From Candidatus Caenarcanales bacterium (GTDB taxonomy: Bacteria; Cyanobacteriota; Vampirovibrionia; 2-02-FULL-35-15): a DNA stretch of 64,000 nucleotides. Of this stretch, positions 3,549-25,340 are shown piece by piece (the stretch's first letter is position 1; each line of letters begins with the position of its first letter). The DNA lies in assembly GCA_020050435.1 (NCBI GenBank), contig JAGVKQ010000019.1:33644-97643 (forward strand). The letters run 5' to 3'. Below the pieces are notes generated by a model. It was not told the DNA's origin. It saw nothing but the letters and a program-made list of their open reading frames with translations, and made no database searches. Position numbers and translations under genes: made by a program.

Positions 3549-3604
3549 ATCATCCTTTTGATTATCTTTAGATGGATGTAAGTTGTGAATAAAACAACTA
3601 TGCT
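3549..3604 (+). promoter_or_regulatory. 17-bp box ATCATCCTTTTGATTAT (with overlapping second box) and -10 TATGCT 50 bp downstream
   Basis: Member of the repeated box family; -10 at 3599-3604. Confidence 0.7.
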
Positions 3605-3643
3605 TATAAGCTATATAAGTCTAAAAAAGGATGAATTAAAAAT

Positions 3644-3973
3644 ATGCCTGATACAAATGTTGAATCTAAAATAGCTTCAGTTAATTATGATAATGGAACT
3701 AGTAATTTTAAAAAAGTAGAAACTCGAAATTCTAACATAGGCAATTTAGGGTTTTTATTTGTAACAATGATAATAATTCTATGTGTAGTAGTTTTTACAC
3801 AAAAAGCTTTTATATTTAATACAATTACACCAGCAGCAGTCACAAATACACCAGAAGTAGTTACTGAAACAGAAACCACTTATGTGGAAACTGAAAAGCC
3901 ATCAGGTAATTCTGACACAAGTTTTATACAAACTGAAACTACAAAAACTGTTACTGAAACTGAAGTTGATTAA
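3644..3973 (+). CDS. Hypothetical single-pass membrane protein with Thr/Glu-rich tail
   Basis: One hydrophobic segment, AAGGA upstream, preceded by box promoter. Confidence 0.6.
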   Translation: MPDTNVESKIASVNYDNGTSNFKKVETRNSNIGNLGFLFVTMIIILCVVVFTQKAFIFNTITPAAVTNTPEVVTETETTYVETEKPSGNSDTSFIQTETTKTVTETEVD

Positions 3974-4362
3974 TCACTTCTTTTAGGACTTAATAGCTCT
4001 ATCTTATAGCCATCTGGGTCTTCCATGAAAGCTAATATGGAACCTCCATGTTTCATGGGACCTGCTTCTCTAGTGATCTTTGCACCTTTAAATCTAAACT
4101 CTTCACAGGATTTGTAAACATCTTCTACTTCTATAGCTATATGTCCAAAAGCATTACCAAGATCATATTTATCCGTATCCCAGTTATAAGTCAGCTCTAT
4201 GGCAGTGTGTTTTGATTCATCTCCATAACCTAAAAATGCCAACGTAAATCTGCCTTCAGGATATTCTTTCTGGCGAAGGATAGTCATACCCAGAACCTCT
4301 GAATAAAATTTAAGAGATCGTTCCAGGTTCGTAACTCTAAGCATGGTGTGAAGAATTCGCAT
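3970..4362 (-). CDS. gloA: Lactoylglutathione lyase (glyoxalase I)
   Basis: MRILHTMLRV...IELTYNWD..YDLGNAFGHIAI...EDPDGYKIEL. Confidence 0.95.
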   Translation of the reverse strand: MRILHTMLRVTNLERSLKFYSEVLGMTILRQKEYPEGRFTLAFLGYGDESKHTAIELTYNWDTDKYDLGNAFGHIAIEVEDVYKSCEEFRFKGAKITREAGPMKHGGSILAFMEDPDGYKIELLSPKRSD

Positions 4363-4469
4363 ACTAAGATTTTAGCGGATTTTAAATAAAATCTGACGTT
4401 TTTGTATTATGAAATCAAGCTTCTTAACATCCAAGCTATTTTTTTCATGAGTTTTTGAGTGAATGAAAA

Positions 4470-4790
4470 CTAAAAAACAGGAAGAGTTTCAATGTCTTCA
4501 GGTTTGATATTTTTAGCTTTACCATCTAGCTCATCTATACTTAAGCACATTCTATCGGCAGCATCTCTTAAAGCATGTCCCACTTTTCTAACTTTATTTA
4601 CTCCAACATCTTCAAGTTCTTCAAGCTTTTCTTTTGTTAGCTCTTTAAATTTTAAAGTTTTATCAACTAAATCTTTTCTTGTCTCATCTCCTGACTTTGT
4701 AGTCATGAGCACTCCTACCAATACACCCAAAAATAAACCGGATGTAAAAACATTTGCTGCTTTAATGGTACTTGCTAGTTGCTTAAACAT
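4470..4790 (-). CDS. YtxH-domain general stress protein
   Basis: GLFLGVLVGVLMTTKSGDETRKDL motif; start moved to ATG 4790 behind GAAGGTG RBS. Confidence 0.75.
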   Translation of the reverse strand: MFKQLASTIKAANVFTSGLFLGVLVGVLMTTKSGDETRKDLVDKTLKFKELTKEKLEELEDVGVNKVRKVGHALRDAADRMCLSIDELDGKAKNIKPEDIETLPVF

Positions 4791-4857
4791 ATTTTCACCT
4801 TCTTTATTGTAGTAGCTTGTTAATTTACAATTAAATAAATTTTTCTCTACATTAATA

Positions 4858-4914
4858 AGGTTACTCTTCAACTAAAAAAAATAAATCCTTCTTATGGTTA
4901 ATCAAAAGAATGAT
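4858..4914 (-). promoter_or_regulatory. 17-bp box ATCATTCTTTTGATTAA with -10 TAACCT (51 bp) for the YtxH gene
   Basis: Box 4898-4914 on minus strand. Confidence 0.55.
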
Positions 4915-5661
4915 TTAAGCTAATTGCTTTTCTTTAAGTAAACACTTTTCTAAGTCCTCTGAACCACCTATATATTTCCCACCAATAAATATTTGAGGAA
5001 CGGTGGTCTTTCCAGTTATAGCAAGAAGTGTTTTGACCGTAATATTTTTCCCTATAGAGATTTCTTCATACTTCATGCCTTGTTCTGTAAGCATTGCTTT
5101 TGCTTTAGTACAGAATGGGCATCCTTCTTTTGTAAATAATGTTACTGGTTCAGGTGATTTTTCTTTAGGATTTATGTACTTTAACATAGTTTCAGCATCT
5201 GATACTTCAAATGGATCACCTTCTTTTTCAGGCTCAATAAACATTTTTTCAATCACACTATTTTTAACAAGCATTGAATAACGCCATGATCTTTTTCCAA
5301 AACCAATAGCTTCTTTGCCAACAAGCATGCCCATTTTGTCTGTAAATTCACCATTTCCATCTGGAATAAATCTTATCTTCTCAGCATCTTCATCTTTTTT
5401 CCAAGCATTCATTACAAAAGCATCATTTACAGAAACACAAACAATTTCATCTATGCCATTTTTTTTAAATGTTTCTATCAGATTATTATAGCCAGGTACG
5501 TGTGCTGAAGAGCAGGTAGGAGTAAATGCTCCAGGAAGTGAAAACACAACTACAGTTTTATTTTTAAAAATATAATTACTTGTAACCTCAGCCCATTTAT
5601 TATCTTCACGAATTTTAAATGTTACATCAGGTACTTTTTGACCTTCCATATTTTTTAACAT
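4915..5661 (-). CDS. Hybrid peroxiredoxin-5/glutaredoxin (glutathione-dependent peroxidase)
   Basis: PGAFTPTCS Prx5 active site, CVSVNDAFVM, C-terminal Grx CPFC and TVPQIFIGG. Confidence 0.93.
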   Translation of the reverse strand: MLKNMEGQKVPDVTFKIREDNKWAEVTSNYIFKNKTVVVFSLPGAFTPTCSSAHVPGYNNLIETFKKNGIDEIVCVSVNDAFVMNAWKKDEDAEKIRFIPDGNGEFTDKMGMLVGKEAIGFGKRSWRYSMLVKNSVIEKMFIEPEKEGDPFEVSDAETMLKYINPKEKSPEPVTLFTKEGCPFCTKAKAMLTEQGMKYEEISIGKNITVKTLLAITGKTTVPQIFIGGKYIGGSEDLEKCLLKEKQLA

Positions 5662-5753: not shown

Positions 5754-5770
5754 CTCATCTAAAGGATGAT
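5754..5770. promoter_or_regulatory. Near-palindromic copy of the 17-bp box (CTCATCTAAAGGATGAT)
   Basis: TCATC-N5-GATGA in divergent intergenic region; no -10 at the usual 40/50 spacing. Confidence 0.5.
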
Positions 5771-5850: not shown

Positions 5851-6390
5851 ATGAAAAAAACGCTTAATCTCTTACTAATAGTGGCATTACTTCTTCCTTC
5901 TACCTTTTTGGTGCCTTTAGCTTCTTTGGCAGAACATGAGAAGTTAAAAGTCCCAAGTGATTTATCTATTCCTATAAGCTTTGCTGAACCTGTTACTAGT
6001 AATAAAATTGCCTCTGGTGATTCTATTCCTGTAATTATAAATAAAGATATTTATGTAGAAGAAACCTTGGTTTTTAAAAGAGGAACTGATGGAGTTGTTT
6101 TTGTAGACTCGAGTAAAAAAAGTGGACGTTGGGGAAGTGCAGGAAAAATTAAAATTACCAGTGGAAAATTGACAGATGTATTTGGAACTCAGCATGATGT
6201 GAAAATATCTGAAAAAGAAAAAGGTGACGGTAAACCTTCAGCAAAAATATTGCCAGTTGTAGGTTTAGTTGTTTTTTGGCCTTTAATTTTATTTGGACTT
6301 AAAAAAGGTGATCAGGCAGTTATTCCTGCTGGAAAAATAGCTTATGCCTTTACAAAAGATTCAGTAAGAGTTGATACTTCAAAAAATTAG
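5851..6390 (+). CDS. Secreted hypothetical protein, VirB10/TrbI-like beta domain
   Basis: Signal peptide; VPxxxxIxIxFxxxVTSxxxxxGD pattern shared with 11610-12575 protein. Confidence 0.55.
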   Translation: MKKTLNLLLIVALLLPSTFLVPLASLAEHEKLKVPSDLSIPISFAEPVTSNKIASGDSIPVIINKDIYVEETLVFKRGTDGVVFVDSSKKSGRWGSAGKIKITSGKLTDVFGTQHDVKISEKEKGDGKPSAKILPVVGLVVFWPLILFGLKKGDQAVIPAGKIAYAFTKDSVRVDTSKN

Positions 6391-6435: not shown

Positions 6436-7788
6436 ATGACAAATAAATACGATTATATTGTTATTGGTGGTGGAAGTGGTGGAATTGCATCAGCAAGGAA
6501 AGCCGCTTCCTTTGGTGTAAAGGTTTTATTGGTTGAGGGAAAGCATATAGGTGGAACCTGTGTAAATGTAGGCTGTGTCCCTAAGAAAATCATGTGGAAT
6601 ACAGCAGAGTTGGCAGAATCCATTCATGATGCCAGTGACTATGGCTTTAATGTTGAATATAAAAACTTTGACTTAAAAAAATTAAAAGGTGACAGAGATG
6701 CATTTATAGAAAAACTCCATGGTATATATGAGAAAAATTTAAAAGGGTCTGGGGTTGAAAGAATAAATGGATTTGCAGAGTTTGTAAACGAAAAAGAAAT
6801 TGAAGTCAATGGGGAAAAATATACAGCAGATCACATTTTAATTTCAACAGGTGGCTATCCTGTTATTCCTGATTTACCTGGATCTGAGTTTGGGATTACC
6901 TCTGATGGAGTTTTCAATCTTGAAAAAATCCCTGCTAAGGTTGCAATAGTTGGTGCAGGCTATATTGCAGTTGAATTTGCAGGTATACTACAAAACCTGG
7001 GTTCGAAAGTAACTTGCATTATAAGAAAAGACAGAATGTTAAAGGAATTTGATAAAGACATTCAGAATTTTCTTTTTGAAGAATTGGTAAATTCAGGAAT
7101 TGAAATAATGCCAAATACTGAAGTTCTAGCGGTGGAAAAAAATGACAAAGGGCTTTTAACTATAAAAACTAAAGATGGAAAATCTTTCTCTGAATATGAT
7201 GCATTGATATGGGCTGTGGGCAGAAATCCGAATGTTAAAAATTTAAAACTTGAAAAAGCTAATGTAAAACTAGATGAAAAAGAACATATTATTGTTAATG
7301 AATATCAAAATACAACCACTAAAGGAATATATGCAGTTGGAGATGTTACTGGTAAAAAAGGATTAACACCCGTTGCTATTGCTGCTGGAAGAAGGCTTTC
7401 CCGAAGGCTTTTTAATAAAGAGACTGAATTAAAGCTTGATTATACTAACATCCCCAGTGTTGTATTTTCACACCCACCCATTGGAACTGTAGGATTTACA
7501 GAAGAAAGAGCAATAGAAAAATATAAAGCTGAAAATCTAAAAACATATAAAACAGTTTTTACAAATATGTACCATGCTGTAACTAAAAGAAAAACAAAAA
7601 CAATGATGAAACTTGTAACTCTAAAACCGGAGGAAAAGATAATTGGAATTCAAATAATAGGTATTGGGGCGGATGAAATGCTTCAAGGCTTTAGCGTTGC
7701 TGTCAAAATGGGAGCTACAAAAAAAGACTTTGATGAAACGGTCGCTATTCATCCTACTGCTGCTGAAGAATTGGTAACATTGAGTTGA
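6436..7788 (+). CDS. gorA: Glutathione-disulfide reductase
   Basis: [46 protein letters not shown]. Confidence 0.95.
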
Positions 7789-7998
7789 TTTAAGATTAGC
7801 TTAACTTACTCAGTATTTGATTTTTTAGTAGAAAATTTAGAAGTATTGATATTCTCTAAGTTTACAATGTTTAAGTTCTCTTTACAATTGGGTTTCGCAT
7901 AAGGATTCTTTAACCTAAATATATTTATAATTTTAGGAAGGTTGCAAAAAGGTTAATTTACCCTAAAGGGATCCTATAGAAACTTGGTGGATCATTTT

Positions 7999-10236
7999 AT
8001 GGAACATTATATAGATTATTTAAAAAAAACTTTTCAAAAATTAAAAAATGAATTGAATAATGCATTCATTGCATTAAAATACATTAAGCAAAAAGATACT
8101 AAATCATTAACATTTAAATATATGGTTCCTTTTTTGTTTCTTGTGGTATTACTTACAGCTGATTATTTACTTTTAAATAACTATATAAGCACCAATCAAA
8201 AACAAGCCATGGCTTTTATATTAACAGCAGATCAAAGAATGTTAACACAAAGAATTGCTCTGATTTCTAGAGAAATAACAAAAACAAAAGAAGAAGAAAG
8301 AATTAATAGACTTTCCAAACAATTAATAGACTCAATAAAGTTGCTGGAATCTACTCATAATACCTTGACAAATAAAAATAAAATGAATGCTGCACCTTCA
8401 ATACACTCAGAAAAAATACACTCAATATATTTTGAACCACCACATTCACTAGATTTGCAAATATCAACATTTTTGGAAAAAGCAAAAGCTGTTGCATTTA
8501 TTCCTTCTAAAAAAATATCTGCAAAAGATAAGAACTTGATATATATTTTAACAACTGCTACGGATGAAAAATTACTATTTGGATTAGAAGAACTAATTCA
8601 TCAACATGAAAAAGAATCAGAAGAATTTATATTAAATTCAAAAAAGTTAAATTCTTTATTATTCCTATTAAACATATTAGTAATTATATTCATTGTTAGT
8701 TATGTTTTTCGACCTCTTACTAAAAGAATAGAAAATGAGGTGTTGGCACTTCAAGAAAGTAATAAATTTATTGAAAATTTACGTAAACAAAATGAATTAA
8801 TCTTAAATGCAGCTGGTGAAGGTATATTTGGTATAAATAAAGAAGGACTCATAACATTTGTTAATTCGGCGGGAGCCACCATGGTTGGTTGGAGTATTCC
8901 AGAGTTAATTGGAAAGTACCCGCATGAAATCATTCATCATACAAAAGTTGACGGTTCTCCATGTTTAAAAAGTGAGTGCCCTATTTATGAATCTTTAAAA
9001 GATGGTAATTCATATCATACAGATAATGAATTGTTTTGGAAAAAAGATGGTATTGCTTTTCCAGTAGAATATTTGAGTACTCCTATTAAAGAAAATGAGG
9101 AGCTTATTGGAGCAGTAATAATTTATAGAGATATAACTGAGCAGAGAAAAGAACAACAATCAAAAAATAGATTAGCTTCTATCGTGGAATCATCAGAAGA
9201 TGCTATATTAGGTTTATCTCTTAAGGGAAATATTGAAAATTGGAATGATGGAGCTGTAAGAAGTTATGGCTATTCAAAAGAGGAAGCTTTTAATAAGAAT
9301 GTTTCAATTATTTTTCCTAACGATAATTTGGGCGAAATTGATGTACTTCTAGGAAGAATTAAAAATGGAGAACATATTAATCACTTTGAAACTATTCGTA
9401 AAAAAAAGGATGGAAGCTTAATTTATGTATCTCAAGCAATATCTCCCATTAAAGATTATGAAAATAAAGTTATAGGGGTTTCTTCTATAGAACGAGATAT
9501 TAGTGAAAAGAAAATATCAGAAGAAAAATTGAATAATGTTTTACTAGAGCTTGAACGCTCTAACAAAGAGCTTGAACAATTTGCATATATTACCTCACAT
9601 GATTTGCAGGAACCACTAAGAACAATAATAAGTTATTCTCAACTTACGCAAGAAATATATGCTGACAAGCTAGATGAAAAAGGTAAACAATTTTTAAACT
9701 ATGCATCTGAAGGTGCACAAAGAATGCAAAATCTAATAAATGATTTACTTGAATACTCAAGAATAGAAAAGGCTGGTACTACTTTTGAGCCAACAGTATG
9801 TAATGAAATTGTTAAAACAGCGATTACGAATTTAAATTTATCTATAAGTGAGAGCAAGGCAGAAGTAATATGTGATGATCTGCCAATAGTAATGGGAGAT
9901 AAGATACAGTTAATCCAACTTTTTCAAAACTTAATTGGAAATGCTATTAAATATAGAGGTAAATTGTCACCAAAGATTTTCATTAATGCTACAAAAAAAG
10001 AAAATATATGGTTCTTTTCAGTTAAAGACAATGGAATAGGCTTTAATAGTGAATATGCAGAACAAATATTCTTAATATTTCAGCGTTTACATTCTAGAAA
10101 AACCTATAAAGGAAGCGGTATTGGGCTTGCTTTATGTAAAAGAATTGTTGAAAGGCATGGCGGGACGATATGGGCAGAGTCTGAGCCTGAGAAAGGTAGT
10201 ATATTTAACTTTACGATACCATCAATTAAGGGTTAA
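7999..10236 (+). CDS. Membrane sensor histidine kinase (NarX/PilJ-like periplasmic domain, 2 PAS, HisKA, HATPase)
   Basis: QRMLTQRIA P-box-like motif between two TM segments; two PAS; SHDLQEPLR; DNGIGF, GSGIGL. Confidence 0.9.
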   Translation: MEHYIDYLKKTFQKLKNELNNAFIALKYIKQKDTKSLTFKYMVPFLFLVVLLTADYLLLNNYISTNQKQAMAFILTADQRMLTQRIALISREITKTKEEERINRLSKQLIDSIKLLESTHNTLTNKNKMNAAPSIHSEKIHSIYFEPPHSLDLQISTFLEKAKAVAFIPSKKISAKDKNLIYILTTATDEKLLFGLEELIHQHEKESEEFILNSKKLNSLLFLLNILVIIFIVSYVFRPLTKRIENEVLALQESNKFIENLRKQNELILNAAGEGIFGINKEGLITFVNSAGATMVGWSIPELIGKYPHEIIHHTKVDGSPCLKSECPIYESLKDGNSYHTDNELFWKKDGIAFPVEYLSTPIKENEELIGAVIIYRDITEQRKEQQSKNRLASIVESSEDAILGLSLKGNIENWNDGAVRSYGYSKEEAFNKNVSIIFPNDNLGEIDVLLGRIKNGEHINHFETIRKKKDGSLIYVSQAISPIKDYENKVIGVSSIERDISEKKISEEKLNNVLLELERSNKELEQFAYITSHDLQEPLRTIISYSQLTQEIYADKLDEKGKQFLNYASEGAQRMQNLINDLLEYSRIEKAGTTFEPTVCNEIVKTAITNLNLSISESKAEVICDDLPIVMGDKIQLIQLFQNLIGNAIKYRGKLSPKIFINATKKENIWFFSVKDNGIGFNSEYAEQIFLIFQRLHSRKTYKGSGIGLALCKRIVERHGGTIWAESEPEKGSIFNFTIPSIKG

Positions 10237-10244
10237 TTAAATAG

Positions 10245-10679
10245 ATGAAAAAAAATAATATAATTAATGTTTTGTTAGTTGAAGATAGTCCAAGTGATAT
10301 AGATCTGACTTTAGAAGCATTTAAAAGGATAACTACACCAAATCAAATTTCTGTTGTAGAAGATGGGGAGGAAGCGCTTTTATTTCTTAAGAAAGAGGGG
10401 CAATATAAAAATGTAAGCACGCCTGATATTATTCTTCTTGATTTAAACTTGCCAAAAATAGACGGTAGAAATGTCCTAATTGAAATTAAATCTAATGATA
10501 CTTTAAAACATATTCCAGTAATTGTTTTAACCACATCAAAATCAGAGGAGGATATATTAAAATCTTATAAGTTACATGCAAATTGTTATATTACTAAACC
10601 CGTAGACATAAAACAATTTTGGGAAATGATTAATTGTATTGAATTATTTTGGTTTAAGATTGCACGCTTACCTAGTTAA
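10245..10679 (+). CDS. Single-domain response regulator (Rcp1-like)
   Basis: LLVEDS, LLDLNLPKIDG, LTTS, ANCYITKPV, FW motif. Confidence 0.92.
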   Translation: MKKNNIINVLLVEDSPSDIDLTLEAFKRITTPNQISVVEDGEEALLFLKKEGQYKNVSTPDIILLDLNLPKIDGRNVLIEIKSNDTLKHIPVIVLTTSKSEEDILKSYKLHANCYITKPVDIKQFWEMINCIELFWFKIARLPS

Positions 10680-10720
10680 TTTATAACTCGATTTGAACAT
10701 AATAAATAAAGGAGATCAAA

Positions 10721-11128
10721 ATGACAAAAGATAGCAATGTTGACACTATAAAAATTTTAATCATAGAAGATAATGAAAGTGATGCCGTATTGGTTCAGCA
10801 TTTATTAGAGAGTCCAGAAAACAGTAAATTTAAATGCTCATCAGCAGAGTCAATTTTAGAAAGTATAGAACTACTAAAAAAAGAATCTTTTGATCTTGTA
10901 ATATTAGATTTAAATTTACCTGATGGTAAGGGCTTTAATACGTTTTCACAAATAAAAGAATTAGTTCCTGATCTTCCAATTCTGATTCTTAGTGGATCTA
11001 CCATGAAAAGGGAAGAGTTTAGACATTGTTTAGATAGTGCTGAGAATTATTTAGTCAAAGGATATCTTGATAGTGCAACATTAACTGAAACTATTATGAA
11101 AGCTTTAAATGAAAAGAAAAGTATTTAA
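10721..11128 (+). CDS. Single-domain response regulator
   Basis: ILIIEDNESD, LDLNLPDG, YLVKG. Confidence 0.88.
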   Translation: MTKDSNVDTIKILIIEDNESDAVLVQHLLESPENSKFKCSSAESILESIELLKKESFDLVILDLNLPDGKGFNTFSQIKELVPDLPILILSGSTMKREEFRHCLDSAENYLVKGYLDSATLTETIMKALNEKKSI

Positions 11129-11144: not shown

Positions 11145-11591
11145 TTAATGAATACTTGCTGGGTTTGAAGCTTGTATACCTAATCTTTTTATAGTTCTAT
11201 AATGATGATTTATTATAATTGCATTACGAGCATCCATGAATGCTTCTTTTAAATCTTCTTTTTGAATACTGATGCCTGTTTCTAAATACTGAGCAACTTT
11301 TTCTAATTCTTCACTTGATTTGTTTAAAAGTTCTTCTCCTTCAATTGTTGTATTTAAAGAATCTTTTTTTACAAGTGCTAATGCTTTTCTTGTTTCTTTA
11401 GATGCAAGCTTCATGTCATTATTCAGGAAGTTTTCACTTGCTTCATTTGAGTACTCCTCAAAAGCATTCAACAAAGTTACTTCCTCTAACTTATTTACTT
11501 TAATAGGGGGAATTTGCATTTGAGCAAATGCATTACCTGTTGTAAAAACTGAAAGGGCTAATGATATTGCTATAAACCTTATACTATTCAT
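11145..11591 (-). CDS. Secreted YfdX-like helical protein
   Basis: Signal peptide; ASENFL..D.K.AS.E.RKA...L.KS.EELE..A pattern; paralog at 25365-25703. Confidence 0.55.
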   Translation of the reverse strand: MNSIRFIAISLALSVFTTGNAFAQMQIPPIKVNKLEEVTLLNAFEEYSNEASENFLNNDMKLASKETRKALALVKKDSLNTTIEGEELLNKSSEELEKVAQYLETGISIQKEDLKEAFMDARNAIIINHHYRTIKRLGIQASNPASIH

Positions 11592-12575: not shown

Positions 12576-12608
12576 AGTATAACTCCTCATTTATTTATTG
12601 ATAAACCA

Positions 12609-16530: not shown

Positions 16531-16572
16531 CTCATGAATTAAATTGATTGAAATCATTTGATTAATTAACTT

Positions 16573-16613: not shown

Positions 16614-16619
16614 ATGAAA

Positions 16620-16693
16620 ACAACCAAAAGGATGATCTAGAAAATAAACCATCCTTTAGTTCAATATCTATTTCAAGCTAATACAGTTAAGCT
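16620..16693 (+). promoter_or_regulatory. Boxes 16620-16636 (minus) and 16648-16664 (plus) with -10 TAAGCT at 16688
   Basis: AACCATCCTTTAGTTCAATATCTATTT identical to 15383 and 17252 copies. Confidence 0.7.
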
Positions 16694-16723
16694 TAATTAA
16701 TTAAAATAAATTGAGGAATTAAC

Positions 16724-17227
16724 ATGATGAAAAAAAATTGTACTTATTTGTTATTAGCATTTGTTCTTTCGTTGGGAGTAAGCTTTGTAAGTATAGGAAG
16801 TAATAAAGCTCTAGGACAAACAGTAGTTTTGAGTGACAAATTCTCAGGTGTCTGGACAGCAAAAGTAAATAGGACTGTTAGTGTAAACGGAGTAATAGTG
16901 AGAGAAGGTACTCGCACTATTCATCTAAGACTATGTTCAAAGAATGGAGAAATAAAGGGTATTGTAGCTCACCCAGGATTTTTTACAAAAGCTCTTATAA
17001 TTAACCAGAATGTAATATCTGATAAAGAAGTAGATGTAGATGTTAGAGATAGAAGAGGCAGAACAGCGACATTAAGACTTTCTTTGGTAGATGATCTTAA
17101 GTTGAATGGCTCTTTCTCAAATGGTGTCAACTTTGAATCTACTAAAAAATCTAACTTTAATCTTTGTGAAGCATTTAGAACATGCAACTTAAATGATTTG
17201 TTTAATACTAAAGAATTTAATGACTAA
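16724..17227 (+). CDS. Secreted hypothetical beta-rich protein
   Basis: Signal peptide, GAGG RBS, box promoter. Confidence 0.65.
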   Translation: MMKKNCTYLLLAFVLSLGVSFVSIGSNKALGQTVVLSDKFSGVWTAKVNRTVSVNGVIVREGTRTIHLRLCSKNGEIKGIVAHPGFFTKALIINQNVISDKEVDVDVRDRRGRTATLRLSLVDDLKLNGSFSNGVNFESTKKSNFNLCEAFRTCNLNDLFNTKEFND

Positions 17228-17252
17228 AGATAGTTGCTTTGCTAAAGGATAA

Positions 17253-17298
17253 ACCATCCTTTAGTTCAATATCTATTTAAAGTTAATAGAGTTAAGCT
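17253..17298 (+). promoter_or_regulatory. Box 17253-17269 with -10 TAAGCT at 17293
   Basis: Same 27-bp block as at 15383 and 16647. Confidence 0.7.
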
Positions 17299-17331
17299 TA
17301 ATGGATAAAATAAATTAAGGGAGTTAATATC

Positions 17332-17823
17332 ATGGATAAGACAAAAAAAATAGTTACAATGGCAATGTTGATAAGTGTTTTAAGTTGTTCTCAGTCACAA
17401 GCATATACAGGTAATATGGATTGGGATAATTTTAAAGCAAAGGCTGCTGCTGGTGAAACTACAAGAAAAAATTTCATAGGTGGAAATAACCTAAAGTATG
17501 AATGCAAATATAACCATAATAAAGATGGAGTATGTAAAAAATTCTATAAAAATGGGCATGTAGCAAAGGAATCAACATCTTCAAATAATGGACAAAATGT
17601 TACATATAGAACCTTTTTTGAAAATGGTGGAATAGCTAGTGAAAGTCGCTACATTGATAGTCTAAGAAATGGAAAGTTTAAACAATTCTACTGGAGTTCA
17701 GCTTCAGCATTATCTTATAGACAACCATCTTCAGAATCATCTTATAAGGATGGCTATAGACATGGTGTATCAAAAACATTCTCACCAAATGGTGCTCTTA
17801 CCTGGTCACAAAATTATAATTAA
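17332..17823 (+). CDS. Secreted MORN-variant repeat protein (YwqK-like repeats)
   Basis: KDGVCKKFYKNG, YRTFFENG, RNGKFKQFY, RHGVSKTFSPNG repeats; signal peptide. Confidence 0.7.
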   Translation: MDKTKKIVTMAMLISVLSCSQSQAYTGNMDWDNFKAKAAAGETTRKNFIGGNNLKYECKYNHNKDGVCKKFYKNGHVAKESTSSNNGQNVTYRTFFENGGIASESRYIDSLRNGKFKQFYWSSASALSYRQPSSESSYKDGYRHGVSKTFSPNGALTWSQNYN

Positions 17824-17826
17824 TGA

Positions 17827-17849
17827 GTAGGGGCAGATACAATCTGCCC
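17827..17849 (+). repeat. GTAG-tagged REP-like hairpin
   Basis: GTAG-GGGCAGAT-ACA-ATCTGCCC, 3 bp after a stop codon. Confidence 0.65.
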
Positions 17850-17920
17850 TCTCTTGTTATAAAAAACACTGGAGGATTATTTACTTAGTTCTCCAATATT
17901 TTATTGTTTAATTTGCGATA

Positions 17921-18096
17921 TGTCATTCTGAGCCCTTCATTACATTCAGGGTAAACTCTAGCGAAGAATCCACTAACGTAAGTAGATTCTTCGTTCGCTT
18001 CGCTCACTCAGAATGACAACCTGCGCTGGTTGGATTGCTTCGGGCTAAAGCCCTCGCAATGACAATAGGATTCCCTGATCAAGCCAGTGAATGACA
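17921..18096. repeat. Cluster of YGTC-tagged (CGTC-family-like) palindromic repeats
   Basis: TGTCATTCTGAG (17921) ... CTCAGAATGACA (18018) with inner GAAGAATC/GATTCTTC; two further units GGATT...AATGACA at 18032-18064 and 18068-18096. Confidence 0.75.
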
Positions 18097-18110
18097 TCAC
18101 CTCAGAGTCT

Positions 18111-18551
18111 TTACTTACACCTTACATCACTACTTAATTCTTTAAGCATATTCATCATGCATTGATCATCAAATTTAACCATAGAGTAAAGATTGCTAAT
18201 TGAAACAATTCCAACAAGCTCTCCATCTTTTTCTACAGGTAATCTTCTGTAGCCATTAGCACCCATTATGTCTAATGCTTCTTTGCAAGTAGTCTCTGGG
18301 GAGATTGTCATTGGCCACTTTATCATTATATCTTTAACAGTTGTTGTAGAAGGATCTCTTTCATATGCAATAGCTCTGATTACAATTTGCCTGTCCGTTA
18401 CAAAACCTAAAAGTTTTTTATGCCCATCTGATACCAGTACAGAGCCAACATTTTCTTCATTCATAAACTTTGCTATTTTATAAAGAGTTGTTTCTAGTCC
18501 TACTGTTACAGGATTTATTTCCATTACTTGACTTACGTTTGTTGTTAACAT
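18111..18551 (-). CDS. CBS-pair domain protein
   Basis: VGSVLV...GFVTDRQIVIR; YRRLPVEKDGELVGIVS. Confidence 0.9.
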   Translation of the reverse strand: MLTTNVSQVMEINPVTVGLETTLYKIAKFMNEENVGSVLVSDGHKKLLGFVTDRQIVIRAIAYERDPSTTTVKDIMIKWPMTISPETTCKEALDIMGANGYRRLPVEKDGELVGIVSISNLYSMVKFDDQCMMNMLKELSSDVRCK

Positions 18552-18771
18552 TATGTTTTTATTTCCTTTTGAAAAAAAATATTAAATTCTTTCTCTTTAT
18601 AAAGGTAAGTATGCTCTTTATTTGTTACCTTTATACGTTTATCTACCTAAACAATCTATTGAAAGTATCATTTACATTTGTGAAGCGTAAAGCCTCATGA
18701 TGTTTTTGCATTGTTAGTTGCCCATAGTTCCGTAAAGCAATAGCTTTAAACAAAATAAAAATCTTTAATGA

Positions 18772-18788
18772 ATCATCTTTAGGATGAT
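18772..18788. promoter_or_regulatory. Most symmetric copy of the box, upstream of the HK/NarL-type RR pair
   Basis: AATCATC-TTTAG-GATGATT perfect 7-5-7 inverted repeat (18771-18789). Confidence 0.7.
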
Positions 18789-18853
18789 TATTAATAAGAG
18801 CCCCGCAAATCATTTGTATTTAATCATGTAAGTCAGGTACTTTAAATGAATAA

Positions 18854-19993
18854 ATGACTGACTTGTCTAACATGAAAGAATCGGCTGAAGAAAAAAAGCT
18901 TAACATTGTTCCTTCAATTAATGGTTTGAAATCTTTATCTGAGGAAACTTGGCAATTTGCTAAAGCAAAAAAACTGGCAGATTTAGAAAGCTTATTTGAT
19001 AACTTAGGTGAAGGTATTGTTGCCTTTAGTTTGGATTTAAACGTCACAGATTCAAATAAAGTAGGAAAGCATATAATAGAAAACTTTATAAATTTTTATT
19101 ATGATGGAAAAAACTATAAATTAAAGGATCTTTTAATAATCCAAGAAGTTTTTATAAAAAATACTAACTCATTAGCTTTAATGGAAACAGCTTCTTATAA
19201 TCTTTTTGGAGAAAAACATATATTTAATATTAGTGCTTCACCAATATTTTCTGAAGCGCATGTTCTTACTGGAGCCTGCTTAATTCTTAATGATATAACA
19301 GAGTCTAAAAAACATACAAAAGAGTTGGAAGATCTAATTAGTGGATTAACGCATGATTTAAAAACTCCATTGATAGCTGCTGAAATAAACTTTATTCATT
19401 TGATAAATGAAGACTTTGGGAAAATATCAAAAGAGCAATTAGAAATTTTGACTTTATTAAATCAGAATAATACTGATGCACTAAGATTTGTGAAAAATTT
19501 ACTTGCTGTTTTTAAATATGAAGCAAAGGTGCAAAAAATAATACTTGAACCAGTTGAACTATCAGAGCTTTTTAAGCAAGTAAATAGTTCTATTAAATCA
19601 ATGCTTGAAGAGAAAAAGATTGATTTAATAGTTTCAACTTCAAACTTTCAATTTATTTGTGATCCATTTGAAATTGGCAGGGTTTTAGTGAATGTACTTA
19701 CAAATGCAATTAGTGCTACTCTTAAAGGTGGACGGATTGAACTTACAGCAGTAAAAAATGAAGAAGGAGCTGTAATTTTTACAATTGAAGATTTTGGAAA
19801 TGGTATATCTGAGGAAGATTTGCCAAACCTTTTTAAAAGATTTTGGCAATCATCAAGGTCACCAAATAGTAGTGGATTAGGTTTACATCTATGCAAACAT
19901 ATTTTAGCAGCCCATGGGGGTAAGATAAGGGCTGAAAGTAAACTGGGGAAATGGACAAGGATAACATTTGAAATCCCTGATCTTATTGCTTAA
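18854..19993 (+). CDS. Cytoplasmic PAS-like histidine kinase
   Basis: THDLKTPL, NVLTNA, DFGNGI, SGLGL. Confidence 0.88.
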   Translation: MTDLSNMKESAEEKKLNIVPSINGLKSLSEETWQFAKAKKLADLESLFDNLGEGIVAFSLDLNVTDSNKVGKHIIENFINFYYDGKNYKLKDLLIIQEVFIKNTNSLALMETASYNLFGEKHIFNISASPIFSEAHVLTGACLILNDITESKKHTKELEDLISGLTHDLKTPLIAAEINFIHLINEDFGKISKEQLEILTLLNQNNTDALRFVKNLLAVFKYEAKVQKIILEPVELSELFKQVNSSIKSMLEEKKIDLIVSTSNFQFICDPFEIGRVLVNVLTNAISATLKGGRIELTAVKNEEGAVIFTIEDFGNGISEEDLPNLFKRFWQSSRSPNSSGLGLHLCKHILAAHGGKIRAESKLGKWTRITFEIPDLIA

Positions 19994-20012
19994 AAATTAA
20001 CTGTAAATTACC

Positions 20013-20747
20013 ATGACAGAAAACCAACAAAAGAAAATTAGACTTATGCTCGTGGAAGACCATATCTTAATTAGAATTGGTATGAAATTGTCTCTTGAAA
20101 AACTTGAAAACATTGAAGTTATTGCTGAGACCTCAAATGGTAGAGAAGCCATTGACCTTGCTAGAGAAAAAAATCCAGATGTAATAATTATGGATATTGG
20201 TTTAATTGAATTAGATGGCATTGAAGCTACAAAAAAAATTAAGGAAACTAATCCAAATATAAAAATAGTAATGTTAACAGTTCATGAATCAGAGAAAGAA
20301 ATTTTAGCTAGCTTAACTAGCGGTGCCGATGGCTACTGTTTGAAAGACATCTCTCCAGAGCAATTATATATAGCAATAAAATCAGTTAATGCTGGAGAGA
20401 TTTGGCTTGCAAAAGAAGTGGCAGAAAAAGTTTTAAGAAATCTTTATGGTAAAGACTTAAGCGATATTAAAAAAGTTGATTTTGCTAATAAAGTCACTGA
20501 AACTAAAAATGAAATGGCTATAAAAAAGCCATATGAAAGAACATCAGTAACCCAATTGTCTGACAGAGAACTGGACGTTTTAAAGCTAATTGTTGACGGT
20601 AAAAGCAATCAAGAAATTGCAGGAAAACTTTTCATTACTTTAGCTACTGTAAAAACCCATGTTAGGAGTATCTTAACTAAGTTAAGTGTTGATGATAGAA
20701 CTCAGGCTGCAGTAAAGGGAATGAGAGAAGGATTAGTTTCATTTTAG
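20013..20747 (+). CDS. NarL/FixJ (LuxR-HTH) response regulator
   Basis: VEDH, MDIGL, GYCLKD; LSDRELDVLKLIVDGKSNQEIA...TVKTHV...DDRTQAA. Confidence 0.93.
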   Translation: MTENQQKKIRLMLVEDHILIRIGMKLSLEKLENIEVIAETSNGREAIDLAREKNPDVIIMDIGLIELDGIEATKKIKETNPNIKIVMLTVHESEKEILASLTSGADGYCLKDISPEQLYIAIKSVNAGEIWLAKEVAEKVLRNLYGKDLSDIKKVDFANKVTETKNEMAIKKPYERTSVTQLSDRELDVLKLIVDGKSNQEIAGKLFITLATVKTHVRSILTKLSVDDRTQAAVKGMREGLVSF

Positions 20748-20765
20748 CCAGTCTTGCAGATATAA

Positions 20766-20821
20766 ATCATCCTTTTGGTTACCAAGAGTAGGGGGTTTTT
20801 TCAAGAAGAATTTGCTAGTCT
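20766..20821 (+). promoter_or_regulatory. Box 20766-20782 with extended -10 (TGcTAGTCT) at +50; leaderless start at 20827
   Basis: ATCATCCTTTTGGTTAC; -10 at 20816-20821; ATG 5 nt later, no SD. Confidence 0.65.
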
Positions 20822-20826
20822 AGATC

Positions 20827-22332
20827 ATGAGAATTTTTACACTGGTTTTAATAAATCTAAGTTTGTTAATTTTGACTTGTAATATAGCAAATAGTGAAGA
20901 TTTAGCCATTCTTTTTAAGCAACAGATAGAAGAACGTATTGATGTAAGAGATCCAGAGTTAAAACAAATTTCTGATTTTACTTTTGATGAGCTTAAAGAA
21001 TTAAGTCAAACAGCTACACCTAAAGCAGATCTTCAAGCTAAATTAGATAATCATTTATCAATGGTCTATCTCGTAGAGCGCAATAACAGCCATAAATTGG
21101 ATAAACCATATCTTCGAATAGCACACTGGAATGTTGAAAGAGGACTTAATGTTGAAGATATTAAGGAAATTCTTATTAATCAACATGATTATGAAAATAA
21201 ACATATTTCAAATGTAAAACCTAGACTCAGGAAGAATTTTAAAGAAGAATTAAATACTTTTGCAAACACTGACATCCTTTGTTTAAATGAAATAGATATT
21301 GGAATGCCTCGTACAAAATATAAAAATATTGTCTCGGAATTGGGCGATACTCTTAATTGGGACTATGCTTATGCCACTGAATTTGTAGAAGTTGGACCTT
21401 TATTTCAAAATAAATTAGTTGATAAAGCCCTTTATAAAGGTTTGCATGGAAATGCAATAATCTCAAAATATCCAATAATTTCTACTAAGGTGATTAGAAT
21501 ACCTAATGAATATGACTGGTATAGAGCTGAAGCCGTTAAGCGTCAATCCCCTCTTGAACATGTGAGGCATTTTGGTGCAATGGCAATTTTCAGTGAAAAA
21601 ATTGAATATAAAGAAGTGAGGCATGGAAGTAGGAATGCATTAATTGCTGATATTCAACTTCCAGATGGTCAAATAATTACAGTAGTTTCTACACACTTAG
21701 AAGACAGAGCTTATGCTGATAAAAGGCTTAAACAATTTAAATATCTTTTAGAAAATCTAAAAGATAAAAAAACTCCTGTAATTCTAGCTGGGGATTTAAA
21801 TACCTCTACTACTGAGACCATACCTACATCTTTAAAGAAAGAAGTTGTAAAAAGAATTAGAGATCCACATTTTGTTTTAAGAGCGGCTGCTACTCCATTT
21901 ATCCCTGGATTGCCGATAGCATGTGCATTGGCTTCTGTTCCAATTAGTAAGCTCCTTGCATATAAAGATCCTTTTTTCCCTAGCATCCCCATAGTATTTC
22001 CAAACCATGAAAGACGATTTTATGCTTCCTTAAAGAAATTTAAATTTAATGATGGAAATACTTTTGATTTAAGTGGAGATAAAGAAAAAAGCTCAAATAG
22101 AAGAGGGGGGCTTCTTGCAAACTCTAATCAAAGACACTGGAAAGGATTTAAAAGCACTTTTAAATTGAAAGAACCTAGATTAATTGCATACTTTAAACTA
22201 GATTGGTTTTTTGTAAAACCAGTAGGAGAACACTTTATGCCTTTTAATGGAAAAACATTAAAAACTTTAAACTATTCTTCAATAGGTCATATTTCTGATC
22301 ATAATCCTATAACTGTAGATTTAACTCTTTAG
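20827..22332 (+). CDS. Secreted endonuclease/exonuclease/phosphatase-family protein
   Basis: HWNVERG, LNEID, HGNAIISKYP, STHLE, AGDLN, KLDWFF, SDHNPI. Confidence 0.88.
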   Translation: MRIFTLVLINLSLLILTCNIANSEDLAILFKQQIEERIDVRDPELKQISDFTFDELKELSQTATPKADLQAKLDNHLSMVYLVERNNSHKLDKPYLRIAHWNVERGLNVEDIKEILINQHDYENKHISNVKPRLRKNFKEELNTFANTDILCLNEIDIGMPRTKYKNIVSELGDTLNWDYAYATEFVEVGPLFQNKLVDKALYKGLHGNAIISKYPIISTKVIRIPNEYDWYRAEAVKRQSPLEHVRHFGAMAIFSEKIEYKEVRHGSRNALIADIQLPDGQIITVVSTHLEDRAYADKRLKQFKYLLENLKDKKTPVILAGDLNTSTTETIPTSLKKEVVKRIRDPHFVLRAAATPFIPGLPIACALASVPISKLLAYKDPFFPSIPIVFPNHERRFYASLKKFKFNDGNTFDLSGDKEKSSNRRGGLLANSNQRHWKGFKSTFKLKEPRLIAYFKLDWFFVKPVGEHFMPFNGKTLKTLNYSSIGHISDHNPITVDLTL

Positions 22333-22357: not shown

Positions 22358-23920
22358 ATGAATAAAAATACAGAAGATATTAAAAATACAGAACGAACAA
22401 ACATTGAAGTTGTTCAACGGGAAGCATTAACACTTGCAGAAAGTATTATAAGCACAGTTAGGGAGCCGCTTATAGTTTTAGATGCTAATTTAAAAATTCA
22501 AAATGTAAATAAATCTTTTTACGATACCTTTAAGGTACATGAAAAAGAAACAATAGGAACCTTGATTTATGATTTAGGAAACAAGCAATGGGATATACCT
22601 AAACTTAGAGAATTATTAGATGAAGTTCTAACAAAAAAACAAGATTTTATGAATTATGAAATGGAGCATGATTTCCAGCAAATTGGACAAAAATCAATGC
22701 TATTAAATGCAAAAAGAATATTTAGAAAAGATATAGGAACTGAGACTATTCTTCTTGCTATTGAAGATATTACTGAGCGTAAAAATGTTGAAGTTATCCA
22801 ACAAGAAGCATTAACGTTTGCAGAAAGTATTATAAGCACTGTTAGAGAACCACTCATAGTTTTAGATGCTAATTTAAAAATTCAAAATGTAAATAAATCT
22901 TTTTACGATACCTTTAATGTAAATGAAAAAGAAACAATAGGAACCTTAATTTACGATTTAGGAAATAAACAATGGGACATACCTAAACTAAGAGAATTAT
23001 TAGATGAAGTTTTAACAAAAAAACAAGATTTTATGAATTATGAGATGGAGCATAATTTCCAGCAAATTGGACAAAAATCAATGCTATTAAATGCAAAAAG
23101 AATATTTAGAAAAGATATAGGAACTGAGACTATTCTTCTTGCCATTGAAGACATTACTGAGCGTAAAAAGGCAGAAGAAGAAATTAAGCAGTATTCTTTT
23201 GAACTAGAGCGCTCAAATACTGAGCTAGAATACTTTGCATATGTAGCATCTCATGACTTACAAGAGCCTCTAAGAATGGTAGCGGGTTACACTCAGCTTC
23301 TGGAAAAAAAATATAAAGATCAATTAGATGATAATGCAAAAAAATATATTAATTTTGCTGTTGATGGAGCAGTTAGAATGCAAGCTTTAATTAATGATTT
23401 ACTTGACTATTCACGAGTTGGTGCAAAGAAAAAAGAAATTACAAAGATAAATTGTATAAGTGTAATAAATAGAATCTTAACAAATATGAAAGATGTAATA
23501 ACTACATCAAATGCACAAGTTAAGTTTAATAAATTCCCTGAAATATATGGAGATGAAGTGCAAATTGAAAGATTGTTTCAGAACTTAATAAGCAATTCAA
23601 TTAAGTTCCACTCTGATAAATCACCCATAATAGAAATTGAAGCAAAGGGAAAGGACAATAACTCATGCTTGTTTTCATTTAAAGATAATGGAATTGGATT
23701 TGAGAAAGAATTTAGTGAGAAAATCTTTCAAATATTTCAACGATTACATACAAAACAAAAGTATACTGGAACTGGAATAGGGCTTGCTGTTTGTAAAAAA
23801 ATAGTTGAAATACATGGCGGGCAAATTTGGGTAGACTCAGCAATTGGTGAAGGAAGCACTTTTTATTTTACCCTACCCATGACTCATAGAATCCATATTG
23901 GATACAAAACAACTAAATAA
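22358..23920 (+). CDS. Cytoplasmic histidine kinase with two nearly identical PAS domains
   Basis: Tandem 128-aa PAS repeat; SHDLQEPLR; DNGIGF; GTGIGL. Confidence 0.92.
   Translation: MNKNTEDIKNTERTNIEVVQREALTLAESIISTVREPLIVLDANLKIQNVNKSFYDTFKVHEKETIGTLIYDLGNKQWDIPKLRELLDEVLTKKQDFMNYEMEHDFQQIGQKSMLLNAKRIFRKDIGTETILLAIEDITERKNVEVIQQEALTFAESIISTVREPLIVLDANLKIQNVNKSFYDTFNVNEKETIGTLIYDLGNKQWDIPKLRELLDEVLTKKQDFMNYEMEHNFQQIGQKSMLLNAKRIFRKDIGTETILLAIEDITERKKAEEEIKQYSFELERSNTELEYFAYVASHDLQEPLRMVAGYTQLLEKKYKDQLDDNAKKYINFAVDGAVRMQALINDLLDYSRVGAKKKEITKINCISVINRILTNMKDVITTSNAQVKFNKFPEIYGDEVQIERLFQNLISNSIKFHSDKSPIIEIEAKGKDNNSCLFSFKDNGIGFEKEFSEKIFQIFQRLHTKQKYTGTGIGLAVCKKIVEIHGGQIWVDSAIGEGSTFYFTLPMTHRIHIGYKTTK
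22404..23169 (+). repeat. Tandem 384-bp intragenic duplication
   Basis: 22404-22787 matches 22788-23169 with few substitutions. Confidence 0.9.
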
Positions 23921-23949
23921 GTTTAAAAAAGTAAAAGAGTGAGAAAATT

Positions 23950-24408
23950 ATGACAAATAACAATATAAACAGTGAACCAATAGAAATACTTCTTGTTGAA
24001 GACAATCCTGGTGATGCTGAATTAACAGTAGAGGCTTTTAAAGAAGCCAAAGTGAACAATAATATTTACATTGTCGAAGACGGCAAAGAAGCCATTGCAT
24101 TTTTAAATAAAGAAGGGAAGTACAATTTATCAGTTACGCCAGATATCATTCTCCTTGATTTAAATTTGCCAAAAATGGGTGGACTGGAAGTTCTTTCTAT
24201 AATTAAAGAGGACGATAATTTAAAACATATTCCTGTTGTCGTGCTGACCACCTCAAGCTCAGACCAAGATATTTTAAAGAGCTATAAACTTCATGCAAAT
24301 TGTTATATAACTAAACCTGTTAAATTAGATAACTTTATTGAAGCTATTCAGAAACTAGACAGTTTTTGGTTAAGCTTTGTTAAGTTGCCTGTGGGGATAA
24401 AAATTTAA
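23950..24408 (+). CDS. Single-domain response regulator (Rcp1-like)
   Basis: EILLVEDNPGD, LLDLNLPKMGG, ANCYITKPV, FWL. Confidence 0.92.
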   Translation: MTNNNINSEPIEILLVEDNPGDAELTVEAFKEAKVNNNIYIVEDGKEAIAFLNKEGKYNLSVTPDIILLDLNLPKMGGLEVLSIIKEDDNLKHIPVVVLTTSSSDQDILKSYKLHANCYITKPVKLDNFIEAIQKLDSFWLSFVKLPVGIKI

Positions 24409-24411
24409 TAT

Positions 24412-24999
24412 ATGAATGAAGTAATTAAAATTTTATTAGTCGAAGATAACCTGGGTGATGCAGGGTTAATCCAAGAAAGCTTGGCAGAAAAAGCTGCATT
24501 ATTTGAAATTACGCATGTTGATAGACTTTCTGAAGCTATCAAGCTTCTTGAGGGAAATAATTTTGATCTAGTTTTATTAGATCTTTCACTTCCAGATAGT
24601 AGTGGAATTGATACATTTAGAAAAGTACAGTTAAAAATTCCAAATCTCCCAATTATCTTATTAACAGGACTTGATGATGAAGTATTGGCTCTTAAATTGA
24701 TTAAAGAGGGTGCTCAAGATTATTTAGTAAAAGGACAAATAAATAGTAAAGTTCTCATTAAATCTATTTGTTATGCATTTGAAAGACACAATAAAAATAG
24801 TGAAAAAGCTCAAAGAAAAGATGAGATCGTAAAAAGTGAGGAAACCGAGCATGCAGTTAGTGAAATTGAAAAATCAATTTTAACACTTATAGCAGAAGGC
24901 ATGTCTAATGAGAAAATTGCAGAGAAGTTACACTTAAGTCTTTCTACAATTAGAAGCCATATGGGTGTAGTAATTACAAAGCTGTATGTTTCTAACTGA
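24412..24999 (+). CDS. Response regulator with C-terminally clipped LuxR HTH
   Basis: REC domain; SEIEKSILTLIAEGMSNEKIA...TIRSH...KLYVSN then stop. Confidence 0.8.
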   Translation: MNEVIKILLVEDNLGDAGLIQESLAEKAALFEITHVDRLSEAIKLLEGNNFDLVLLDLSLPDSSGIDTFRKVQLKIPNLPIILLTGLDDEVLALKLIKEGAQDYLVKGQINSKVLIKSICYAFERHNKNSEKAQRKDEIVKSEETEHAVSEIEKSILTLIAEGMSNEKIAEKLHLSLSTIRSHMGVVITKLYVSN

Positions 25000-25012
25000 T
25001 CTTAAATAGTTT

Positions 25013-25237
25013 TTATACTTTCTTTGTACTACTCATGATAAGTAAAATTACTCCACTAGCTAATGCAATTGTTCCAAAAGCTGGTAGTAGTGGTACTTCT
25101 TTTGTTTTCTCACTTGTTATTTCCAGTGGTCCTAAATCTAGGACTTTTTCTTTTGATGTATAAGTAATTCCTTGATAAGCAAATGCTAGGATTCCCATAG
25201 AAATTAGCACGATTATAAGTATGGTATTTTGTTTCAT
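25013..25237 (-). CDS. DUF3185-like small membrane protein
   Basis: GILAFAYQGITYT.KEKVLDLGPLEIT.EKTK.VPL.P..G...L..G. Confidence 0.8.
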   Translation of the reverse strand: MKQNTILIIVLISMGILAFAYQGITYTSKEKVLDLGPLEITSEKTKEVPLLPAFGTIALASGVILLIMSSTKKV

Positions 25238-25243
25238 CTGCTA

Positions 25244-25340
25244 AGTTTAGCTTTATTGGTTTGGAAAAGATATTGAACTAAAGGATGATCCTTTTGGTTA
25301 TCTTTGGGAGGAATCGCATCGTATGCAAAAGATGTATTCT
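25244..25340. promoter_or_regulatory. Overlapping divergent boxes 25273-25289 (minus, -10 TAAACT at 40) and 25285-25301 (plus, -10 TATTCT at 50)
   Basis: Both box sub-types fused on a shared ATGAT. Confidence 0.72.

Follow-up and report, generated by a model that had tools for sequence, protein, structure and literature searches.

A predicted two-component activator regulon around a NarL-type response regulator in Candidatus Caenarcanales

A 17-bp box in a 22-kb island

The locus described here is a stretch of 64,000 nucleotides (the window; contig C14, positions 33644–97643) from the draft genome of a Candidatus Caenarcanales bacterium (genome G000; 2,493,301 bp, 33% G+C, 30 contigs), a member of the Melainabacteria, which are the non-photosynthetic sister lineage of the cyanobacteria. 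Between positions 3549 and 25294 of the window, an island of ∼22 kb, the intergenic DNA carries many copies of a 17-bp imperfect inverted repeat (the box), most of them set at a constant spacing ahead of a −10-like hexamer. The island also encodes a soluble histidine kinase and a NarL/FixJ-family response regulator, and the most symmetric copy of the box precedes this pair. This report concerns the box and its predicted relation to the regulator. The central features, with strand in brackets, are:

18111–18551 (−): stand-alone CBS-pair protein, divergent from the kinase gene; a conserved neighbour and a box target in relatives
18772–18788 (no strand assigned): 17-bp palindrome with perfect 6-bp arms and a 5-bp spacer, between the CBS and kinase genes; single copy in the genome
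18854–19993 (+): soluble sensor histidine kinase with a HATPase_c domain and an H-box with the invariant H167-D-L-x-T-P-L
20013–20747 (+): NarL/FixJ-family response regulator (receiver plus GerE helix-turn-helix), the proposed box-binding activator

A preliminary description of this DNA listed 14 positions for the box, and inspection of the sequence found it at every one; the minus-strand copies, referred to below by their starts (4914, 5770, 12664, 13309, 15362, 16636 and 25289), begin at the right-hand ends of the 17-mers given there. With at most one mismatch the window contains the 10-mer ATCATCCTTT 19 times, whereas 100 shuffles averaged 10.5 matches and reached 17 at most; 14 of the 19 fall at 3549–25294. 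The exact 12-mer ATCATCCTTTWG occurs nine times in the genome on both strands, where ∼1.2 copies are expected from base composition and a reversed-pattern control has none. Six of these copies are in the island, one is on contig C12 and two are on contig C19. A weight matrix was built from 13 window copies and is circular for them; the leave-one-out scores of these training copies are 15.3–21.3 bits. At ≥19 bits the matrix has 13 matches in the genome, 10 of them in the island and 12 intergenic, the coding share of the genome by open reading frame (ORF) mask being 91% (intergenic ∼9%). Equal frequency inside coding sequences had been named beforehand as an outcome that would speak against a regulon, and it does not hold for the strong sites. 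At ≥15 bits there are 19 intergenic and 24 coding matches.

From 25.3 kb to its end the window has no intergenic match of ≥10 bits, in agreement with the earlier observation of no copy beyond 25.4 kb. The regulon is not self-contained, as had been supposed, since four further copies lie on other contigs (promoter types A and B are defined below):

C12:278724 (−): type-B copy, before the gene of a DUF326 protein
C12:278748 (+): further box
C19:98278 (+): type-B copy, before the gene of a class-A penicillin-binding protein
C19:100386 (+): type-B copy, before a small ORF

A 17-mer with two mismatches was also noted at C1:38873, between two ORFs without Pfam matches. A partial box at C14:33475 on the minus strand, 169 bp to the left of the window, comes after a convergent gene has ended, with nothing behind it, and was taken as chance.

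Promoter architecture and the sigma factor question

Offsets were measured from the start of the box to the −10-like hexamer, and the transcription start (+1) was inferred at 6–7 nt after the hexamer. Type B comprises seven copies in this genome and two in its nearest relative, which have ∼48 nt in common in ungapped alignments; the hexamer is TAAGCT or TAAACT at offset 40 in all seven copies of this genome, and at offset 39 in one copy of the relative. Type A consists of the box followed by a second, degenerate copy, with the hexamer 50 bp from the box start in five copies and 51 bp from it in the copy at 4914 (6/7). The remaining type-A copy, at 15362, has only GACAAT at the expected place, which is not TANNNT, and its −10 element is uncertain. 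The hexamer coordinates and the two phasings of the preliminary description were correct for both types apart from the GACAAT proposed for 15362. TAnnCT, and hence C at position 5, is common to the 13 hexamers of this genome; among 29 sites in relatives, 12 have TANNNT 50 or 51 bp from the box start. The promoters of the island and their predicted targets are:

3549–3604 (+): type-A promoter with box at 3549, degenerate copy to 3577 and TATGCT at 3599–3604; predicted to drive the gene of a 109-residue membrane protein (3644–3973)
4858–4914 (−): type-A-like promoter with box start at 4914 and TAACCT at offset 51; predicted to drive the YtxH gene (4470–4871) and probably also the same-strand glyoxalase gene (3970–4362)
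5754–5770 (−): near-palindromic box, flanked by a peroxiredoxin–glutaredoxin fusion gene (4915–5661, −) and the divergent genes 5851–6390 and 6436–7788 (glutathione reductase)
12609–12664 (−): type-A promoter with TATGCT at offset 50; predicted to drive 11610–12590 (Gly-zipper membrane protein) and 11145–11591
13254–13309 (−): type-A promoter with TATGCT at offset 50; predicted to drive the gene of an sll1863-family stress protein (12925–13224)
15334–15362 (−): type-A box with uncertain −10 element, upstream of the gene of an ice-binding/Big_5 protein (13683–15245)
15384–15429 (+): type-B promoter with TAAGCT at offset 40; predicted to drive the gene of a Laminin_G_3 protein (15463–16530)
16620–16636 (−): inverted extra box with no gene downstream, facing the terminator of the preceding gene
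16648–16693 (+): type-B promoter, predicted to drive 16724–17227
17253–17298 (+): type-B promoter, predicted to drive the gene of a MORN-repeat protein (17332–17823); the ortholog in relative G002 is also type B
20766–20821 (+): box with TAGTCT at offset 50, before an EEP-family gene (20827–22332)
22358–24999: downstream of the EEP-family gene, a second kinase (22358–23920) and two regulators (23950–24408 and 24412–24999)
25244–25340 (no strand assigned): a divergent pair of boxes that overlap; this arrangement recurs at the G002 ortholog
25289 leftwards (−): type-B half with TAAACT, predicted to drive the leaderless gene of a 74-residue membrane protein (25013–25237)
25285 rightwards (+): type-A half with TATTCT at 25335, predicted to drive 25365–25703

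The start codons at 20827 and 25237 begin 6 and 7 nt past the hexamer, respectively, and an ATG at this distance in two units gives independent support for the −10 assignment. No Shine–Dalgarno sequence precedes either of these genes, which encode the EEP-family and 74-residue membrane proteins, within 20816–20829 and 25235–25249. The arrangement at both genes suggests leaderless mRNAs in this lineage.

Class-II activator promoters have a site that overlaps the −35 position, with its centre near −41.5, and a −35 hexamer that is weak or absent. Computed from the hexamers, the predicted site centres are at about −43.5 for type B and, for type A, at about −53.5 (the strong distal site) and −42 (the degenerate site), and no shared −35 hexamer was seen by eye in the ungapped alignments. 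The fixed distance to the −10-like hexamer, together with this lack of a shared −35 hexamer, agrees with the earlier reading of the boxes as activator sites, and the predicted geometry fits an activator rather than a repressor or a sigma element. The box could in principle be a −35-side element of promoters that are read directly by an alternative sigma factor, of the extracytoplasmic function (ECF) or another class, without any activator. The motif is strictly oriented and phased to the −10-like hexamer and the genome encodes three ECF sigma factors, one of them in the window. However, the spacings of 40 and 50 are exactly 10 bp apart and both occur, which one sigma factor contacting both elements would be unable to span; both are far over a 16–19-bp spacer, and the element is palindromic at kinase promoters and is found in divergent pairs with varying spacing. 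We therefore consider direct recognition by a sigma factor very improbable. A sigma-54 reading of the proximal half of type A was likewise set aside, the GG-to-GC spacing being inconsistent between copies by eye.

A second sigma-related question concerns the hexamer itself, as C at position 5 is unusual for a housekeeping −10 element. The sigma set of the genome fits the Melainabacteria lineage and, in addition to the ECF factors, consists of four group-1/2-like, one FliA-like and one SigF-like sigma factor, the last encoded on contig C16 and scoring 227.8 bits against a cut-off of 261. In other genera GGG stands directly before the hexamer in 5 of 11 type-A promoters (for example GGGTATTCT), and the combination of GGG and hexamer resembles the J-Box of the group-3 sigma factor SigJ. 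The J-Box of SigJ-dependent cyanobacterial promoters is reported to be GGGaAtacT, with an absolutely conserved GGG (PMC6495340). The preliminary description had placed a two-component activator in opposition to an alternative sigma factor. This opposition is unproven: in view of the C at position 5 in all 13 hexamers and the J-Box-like GGG elsewhere, an alternative sigma factor may be the partner of the activator. A stricter version, in which the box activator works only with a SigF/SigJ-like group-3 sigma factor, as an AND gate, would refine rather than replace the activator proposal and is, in our view, rather unlikely. Set against it, GGG precedes the hexamer in none of the 13 promoters of this genome, J-Box-like strings show no clear excess in intergenic DNA (31/292, or 10.6%, versus ∼9% of the genome), and the neighbourhood of the SigF-like sigma gene contains no anti-sigma or STAS genes, while the four group-1/2-like sigma factors are also at hand.

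Kinase, regulator and box in relatives

The response regulator 20013–20747 matches Response_reg at 93.7 bits and GerE at 70.8 bits (profile positions 2–55 of 57). By eye, E15-D16, D61, T88 and K110 stand in the usual receiver contexts, D61 in that of the acceptor, and the last GerE helix is present and conserved. Its best NCBIfam model is NarL, at 163.5 bits against a cut-off of 250, and it is accordingly not a NarL ortholog; the nearest solved structures are VraR/LiaR (5hev, E 9.8e-43; 4gvp, E 4.6e-40) and NarL. The best NCBIfam models for the kinase 18854–19993 are PnpS, WalK and PhoR, all below their cut-offs; no membrane segment was predicted by eye from its sequence, and Pfam gives no GAF or haem domain. 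The gap between the kinase and regulator genes is 19 nt and has no box. The adjoining CBS protein resembles CBS-only proteins, including mycobacterial Rv2626c (E 2.4e-18). The remark in the preliminary description that the most symmetric copy precedes the kinase and NarL-type regulator genes is borne out by the palindrome at 18772–18788, whose perfect 6-bp arms are unique in the genome.

Orthologs of the regulator, 66–81% identical, are present in 11 of 11 relatives of the same family, and the named homologs among the 120 listed are all from Melainabacteria. In these 11 genomes ATCATCCTTTNG has 45 matches versus 16 for the reversed control, and 19 of the 45 lie within 10 kb of the regulator ortholog, in 8 of the 11 genomes, where ∼1% would be expected by position alone. 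Fourteen loci around orthologs were compared at a box threshold of 13.5 bits, 12 of them with a kinase–regulator pair and 2 with a regulator without a kinase. In 10 of the 12 kinase–regulator loci a box stands in the region ahead of the kinase gene or of the operon containing it; L045 and L046 are the misses. Relative G003 has a perfect 8-2-8 palindrome before the kinase gene, and near-perfect forms are found in G009 and G006; in size and symmetry such sites match what a dimer of GerE-type helix-turn-helix domains would need, if such a dimer is what binds. CBS orthologs, 52–76% identical, occur in 8 of the 14 loci, with a box within ∼115 bp of the start in 7 of the 8. In a second family, where the regulator is ∼50% identical, a box directly follows the regulator gene in all three genomes of one genus, like the copy at 20766 here. 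The recognition helix of the regulator is invariant across the first family and nearly unchanged in this other box-bearing one. Altogether the box travels with the kinase and NarL-type regulator pair over at least nine genera. The box is a conserved cis-element, and the prediction of a regulon from it is well-founded. On comparative-genomic grounds, autoregulation by the 20013–20747 protein, proposed in the preliminary description, remains the best reading of the sites upstream of the kinase genes and operons.

Three relatives (L033 11940, L038 10305 and L036 10141) have a near-palindromic variant of the box in the short gap between kinase and regulator genes; this variant may serve the regulator gene on its own, as an internal promoter or operator. 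Elsewhere in the relatives, boxes precede Hsp20, potassium-channel-like, NorB-like and YtxH genes. The Hsp20 genes behind boxes, in G001 (L037 4119) and G002 (L034 12340), encode cytosolic forms of 156–165 residues. The sole HSP20 gene of the present genome (in locus L058, G000:C14:117279-120566) has no site of ≥11 bits nearby; its product carries a hydrophobic segment in a long extension at the N-terminus, which sets it apart from the 156–165-residue forms of the relatives. Because the genes behind the relatives' boxes differ while the core persists, the periphery of the predicted regulon is fluid and the CBS–kinase–regulator core is kept.

If a different factor bound the box, the proximity of the pair would be coincidental synteny. 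The genome has nine GerE-domain matches, and one candidate, the second LuxR-type regulator (24412–24999), is encoded in an operon that itself stands behind a box. However, its reading frame meets a stop codon before the last GerE helix, with no same-frame continuation, and its recognition helix differs from that of the 20013–20747 protein; only two of the 14 loci from relatives contain a homolog of it (47% and 26% identity). Beside the boxes of these 14 loci, the only regulator gene seen repeatedly is that of the kinase–regulator pair, in 10 of 12. We thus regard binding by this second regulator, or by one encoded elsewhere, as unlikely. The 24412–24999 regulator could be in decay, or it could act as a monomer.

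Several observations weigh against the box being the operator of the 20013–20747 regulator, or against the strength of the case for it. A search of sequencing runs with 12000–21900 of the window returned no RNA run, and one DNA run in which a small share of this stretch was present. The relatives share ancestry, so the counts given above overstate independent support. A regulator ortholog is present without a box at 13.5 bits in three loci (G007 L043, G009 L045 and G003 L046), and the class-level relative G028 has eight exact box matches (contigs C2 and C4) versus one for the control and no ortholog at E ≤ 1e-20. The G028 matches could be accidental in AT-rich DNA, or the regulator of G028 could have diverged or fallen into a gap of the assembly. 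In the target promoters the right arm of the repeat shows little conservation, which bears on the stoichiometry of binding. At the promoter of the regulator itself, the best −10-like hexamer follows the palindrome at 18772 by ∼45 bp; this differs by half a helical turn from the phasing of the target promoters, and autoregulation could therefore be negative. Finally, part of the long type-B similarity may come from duplication, because the genes at 15463 and 17332 have N-termini in common. Carried to its limit, this last point would make the copies remnants of duplicated promoter cassettes or of a small repeat, with no common regulator, and the ∼48 nt shared by type-B copies do include spacer positions. 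The downstream genes are mostly unrelated, however, the box is kept across genera while its flanks diverge, and the copies are intergenic and oriented toward genes, so that we give this explanation scarcely any weight.

Targets, proposed mechanism and related systems

Profile searches confirmed the earlier family labels of YtxH, ice-binding, lmo0937-family and sll1863-family for the box-associated genes; the labels YfdX-like (11145–11591) and DUF3185 (25013–25237) were supported by neither Pfam nor NCBIfam. The Laminin_G_3 and MORN-repeat products count as secreted proteins. The lmo0937-family gene (13373–13525), which encodes a membrane protein, is divergent from the 13309 box at a distance of 64 bp, and the ortholog of the YtxH promoter in G002 (L034 15353) also has a box. 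Several of the box-driven small membrane proteins have no match to any family. A stress role for the regulon is plausible. Two similarly built operons in the island, 7984–11128 and 22358–24999, each encode a PAS-HisKA kinase followed by two receiver proteins; only the latter sits behind a box, there being no site of ≥10 bits before 7984. A gene for a YopX-domain (phage-associated) protein (25736–26179) directly follows the last box-driven gene, and just outside the island a gene without a box (26423–26704) encodes a 93-residue single-RRM RNA-binding protein, of a kind common in cyanobacteria. At the left end of the window the long ORFs 1343–1828 (−) and 1927–3438 (+) have no Pfam match; the former opens with an unusual low-complexity stretch and is possibly not a gene.

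Building on the motif, its rarity and phasing and its conservation with the regulator, we propose that the box is the operator of the NarL-type regulator 20013–20747 and that the island is the centre of a positively autoregulated two-component activator regulon, a reading that we consider probable. Binding, activation, start sites and signal would then be as follows. On a stress signal, probably cytoplasmic, the soluble kinase would phosphorylate the regulator, and the adjoining, conserved CBS-pair protein may help in sensing. A dimer of the regulator would bind the 17–18-bp inverted repeat, of which the left arm and spacer (ATCATCCTTTWG) are the strongly conserved part, as a single site in type B and as a strong distal plus a degenerate proximal site in type A, both arrangements overlapping the −35 position. 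As the sites overlap this position and no −35 hexamer is shared by eye, the regulator would recruit RNA polymerase as a class-II-type activator. It would feed back on its own operon, switch on the second kinase–regulator operon and drive about a dozen transcription units, whose products include small stress proteins, thiol-redox enzymes and secreted or envelope proteins. As a mechanism, a two-component activator with a palindromic operator is conventional, indeed textbook; here it is predicted.

The NarL/NarP-type regulators of Proteobacteria bind pairs of inverted heptamers ('7-2-7'). The system described here is similar in that the regulator combines a receiver with a GerE helix-turn-helix and has NarL as its best NCBIfam model, in that the short inverted repeat has a 2-bp centre in its most symmetric form (the 8-2-8 palindrome of G003), and in that the sites either precede the −35 position or overlap with it. 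It differs in the regulator, which falls below the NarL cut-off and has a longer linker (244 residues), in the kinase, which has an H-box of the HisKA rather than the NarX type, and in its targets, which are unrelated to nitrate. The LiaR/VraR systems of envelope stress in Firmicutes supply the nearest solved structures, and many of the targets here are likewise secreted or membrane proteins, with a class-A penicillin-binding protein among them. However, there is no LiaF-like protein or membrane kinase here, the kinase having no membrane segment predicted by eye.

In DosR-type logic, an autoregulated NarL-family regulator acts on a palindrome, with targets that include alpha-crystallin and a stand-alone CBS-pair protein. 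Systems of this kind are the DosR/DevR dormancy regulon of mycobacteria and OsdR of Streptomyces (on these systems, see PMC5069765 and PMC7198533). The likeness lies in this logic and in the CBS protein, which matches Rv2626c. Unlike in that system, the kinase here has no GAF or haem domain by Pfam and the sequence of the box differs, and the match of DevR to the regulator (E 9.8e-25) is weaker than that of VraR (E 9.8e-43). The DosR parallel is thus an analogy of logic and not one of membership.

By analogy, the nearest functional counterpart would be the Hik34/Hik2–Rre1 multi-stress module of cyanobacteria (OrrA in Anabaena). The two share a phylum-level lineage, a NarL-type regulator with a soluble HisKA-type kinase, activators, and control of stress proteins. 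A box also precedes a small heat-shock protein gene in two relatives, although the only Hsp20 gene of this genome has none. According to a review, the Rre1 regulon comprises chaperones and a sigma factor, and its proposed motif is GTNCGGK (PMC13421787, citing Kobayashi 2017), which is unrelated to the box consensus. OrrA is tied to salt and dehydration responses in a preprint (10.1101/2021.08.03.454875), and no operator motif for OrrA was found in the literature passages on that regulator.

Searches of a paper library found no experimentally described Melainabacteria regulon. We also entertain a broader idea, as a speculation that is rather doubtful: a conserved CBS–kinase–NarL-regulator unit may run a general stress or dormancy-like programme in Melainabacteria. 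Its composite promoters would require the phosphorylated regulator at the box as well as a SigF/SigJ-like group-3 sigma factor at a J-Box-like −10 element, and its targets would be re-drawn in each genus. If this holds, the promoters would act as a coincidence gate, with a two-component signal and a sigma switch as its inputs.

The locus offers a candidate operator and a named regulator, together with predicted start sites and about a dozen targets. Among the targets are an ice-binding protein and members of the sll1863, lmo0937 and YtxH families, whose role is unknown and which many annotations label as stress proteins. As several genera share the regulator and the box, one in vitro result on binding would annotate many genomes at once. 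It might also give insight into how the stress circuitry of Melainabacteria is related to the Hik34–Rre1 system of photosynthetic cyanobacteria.

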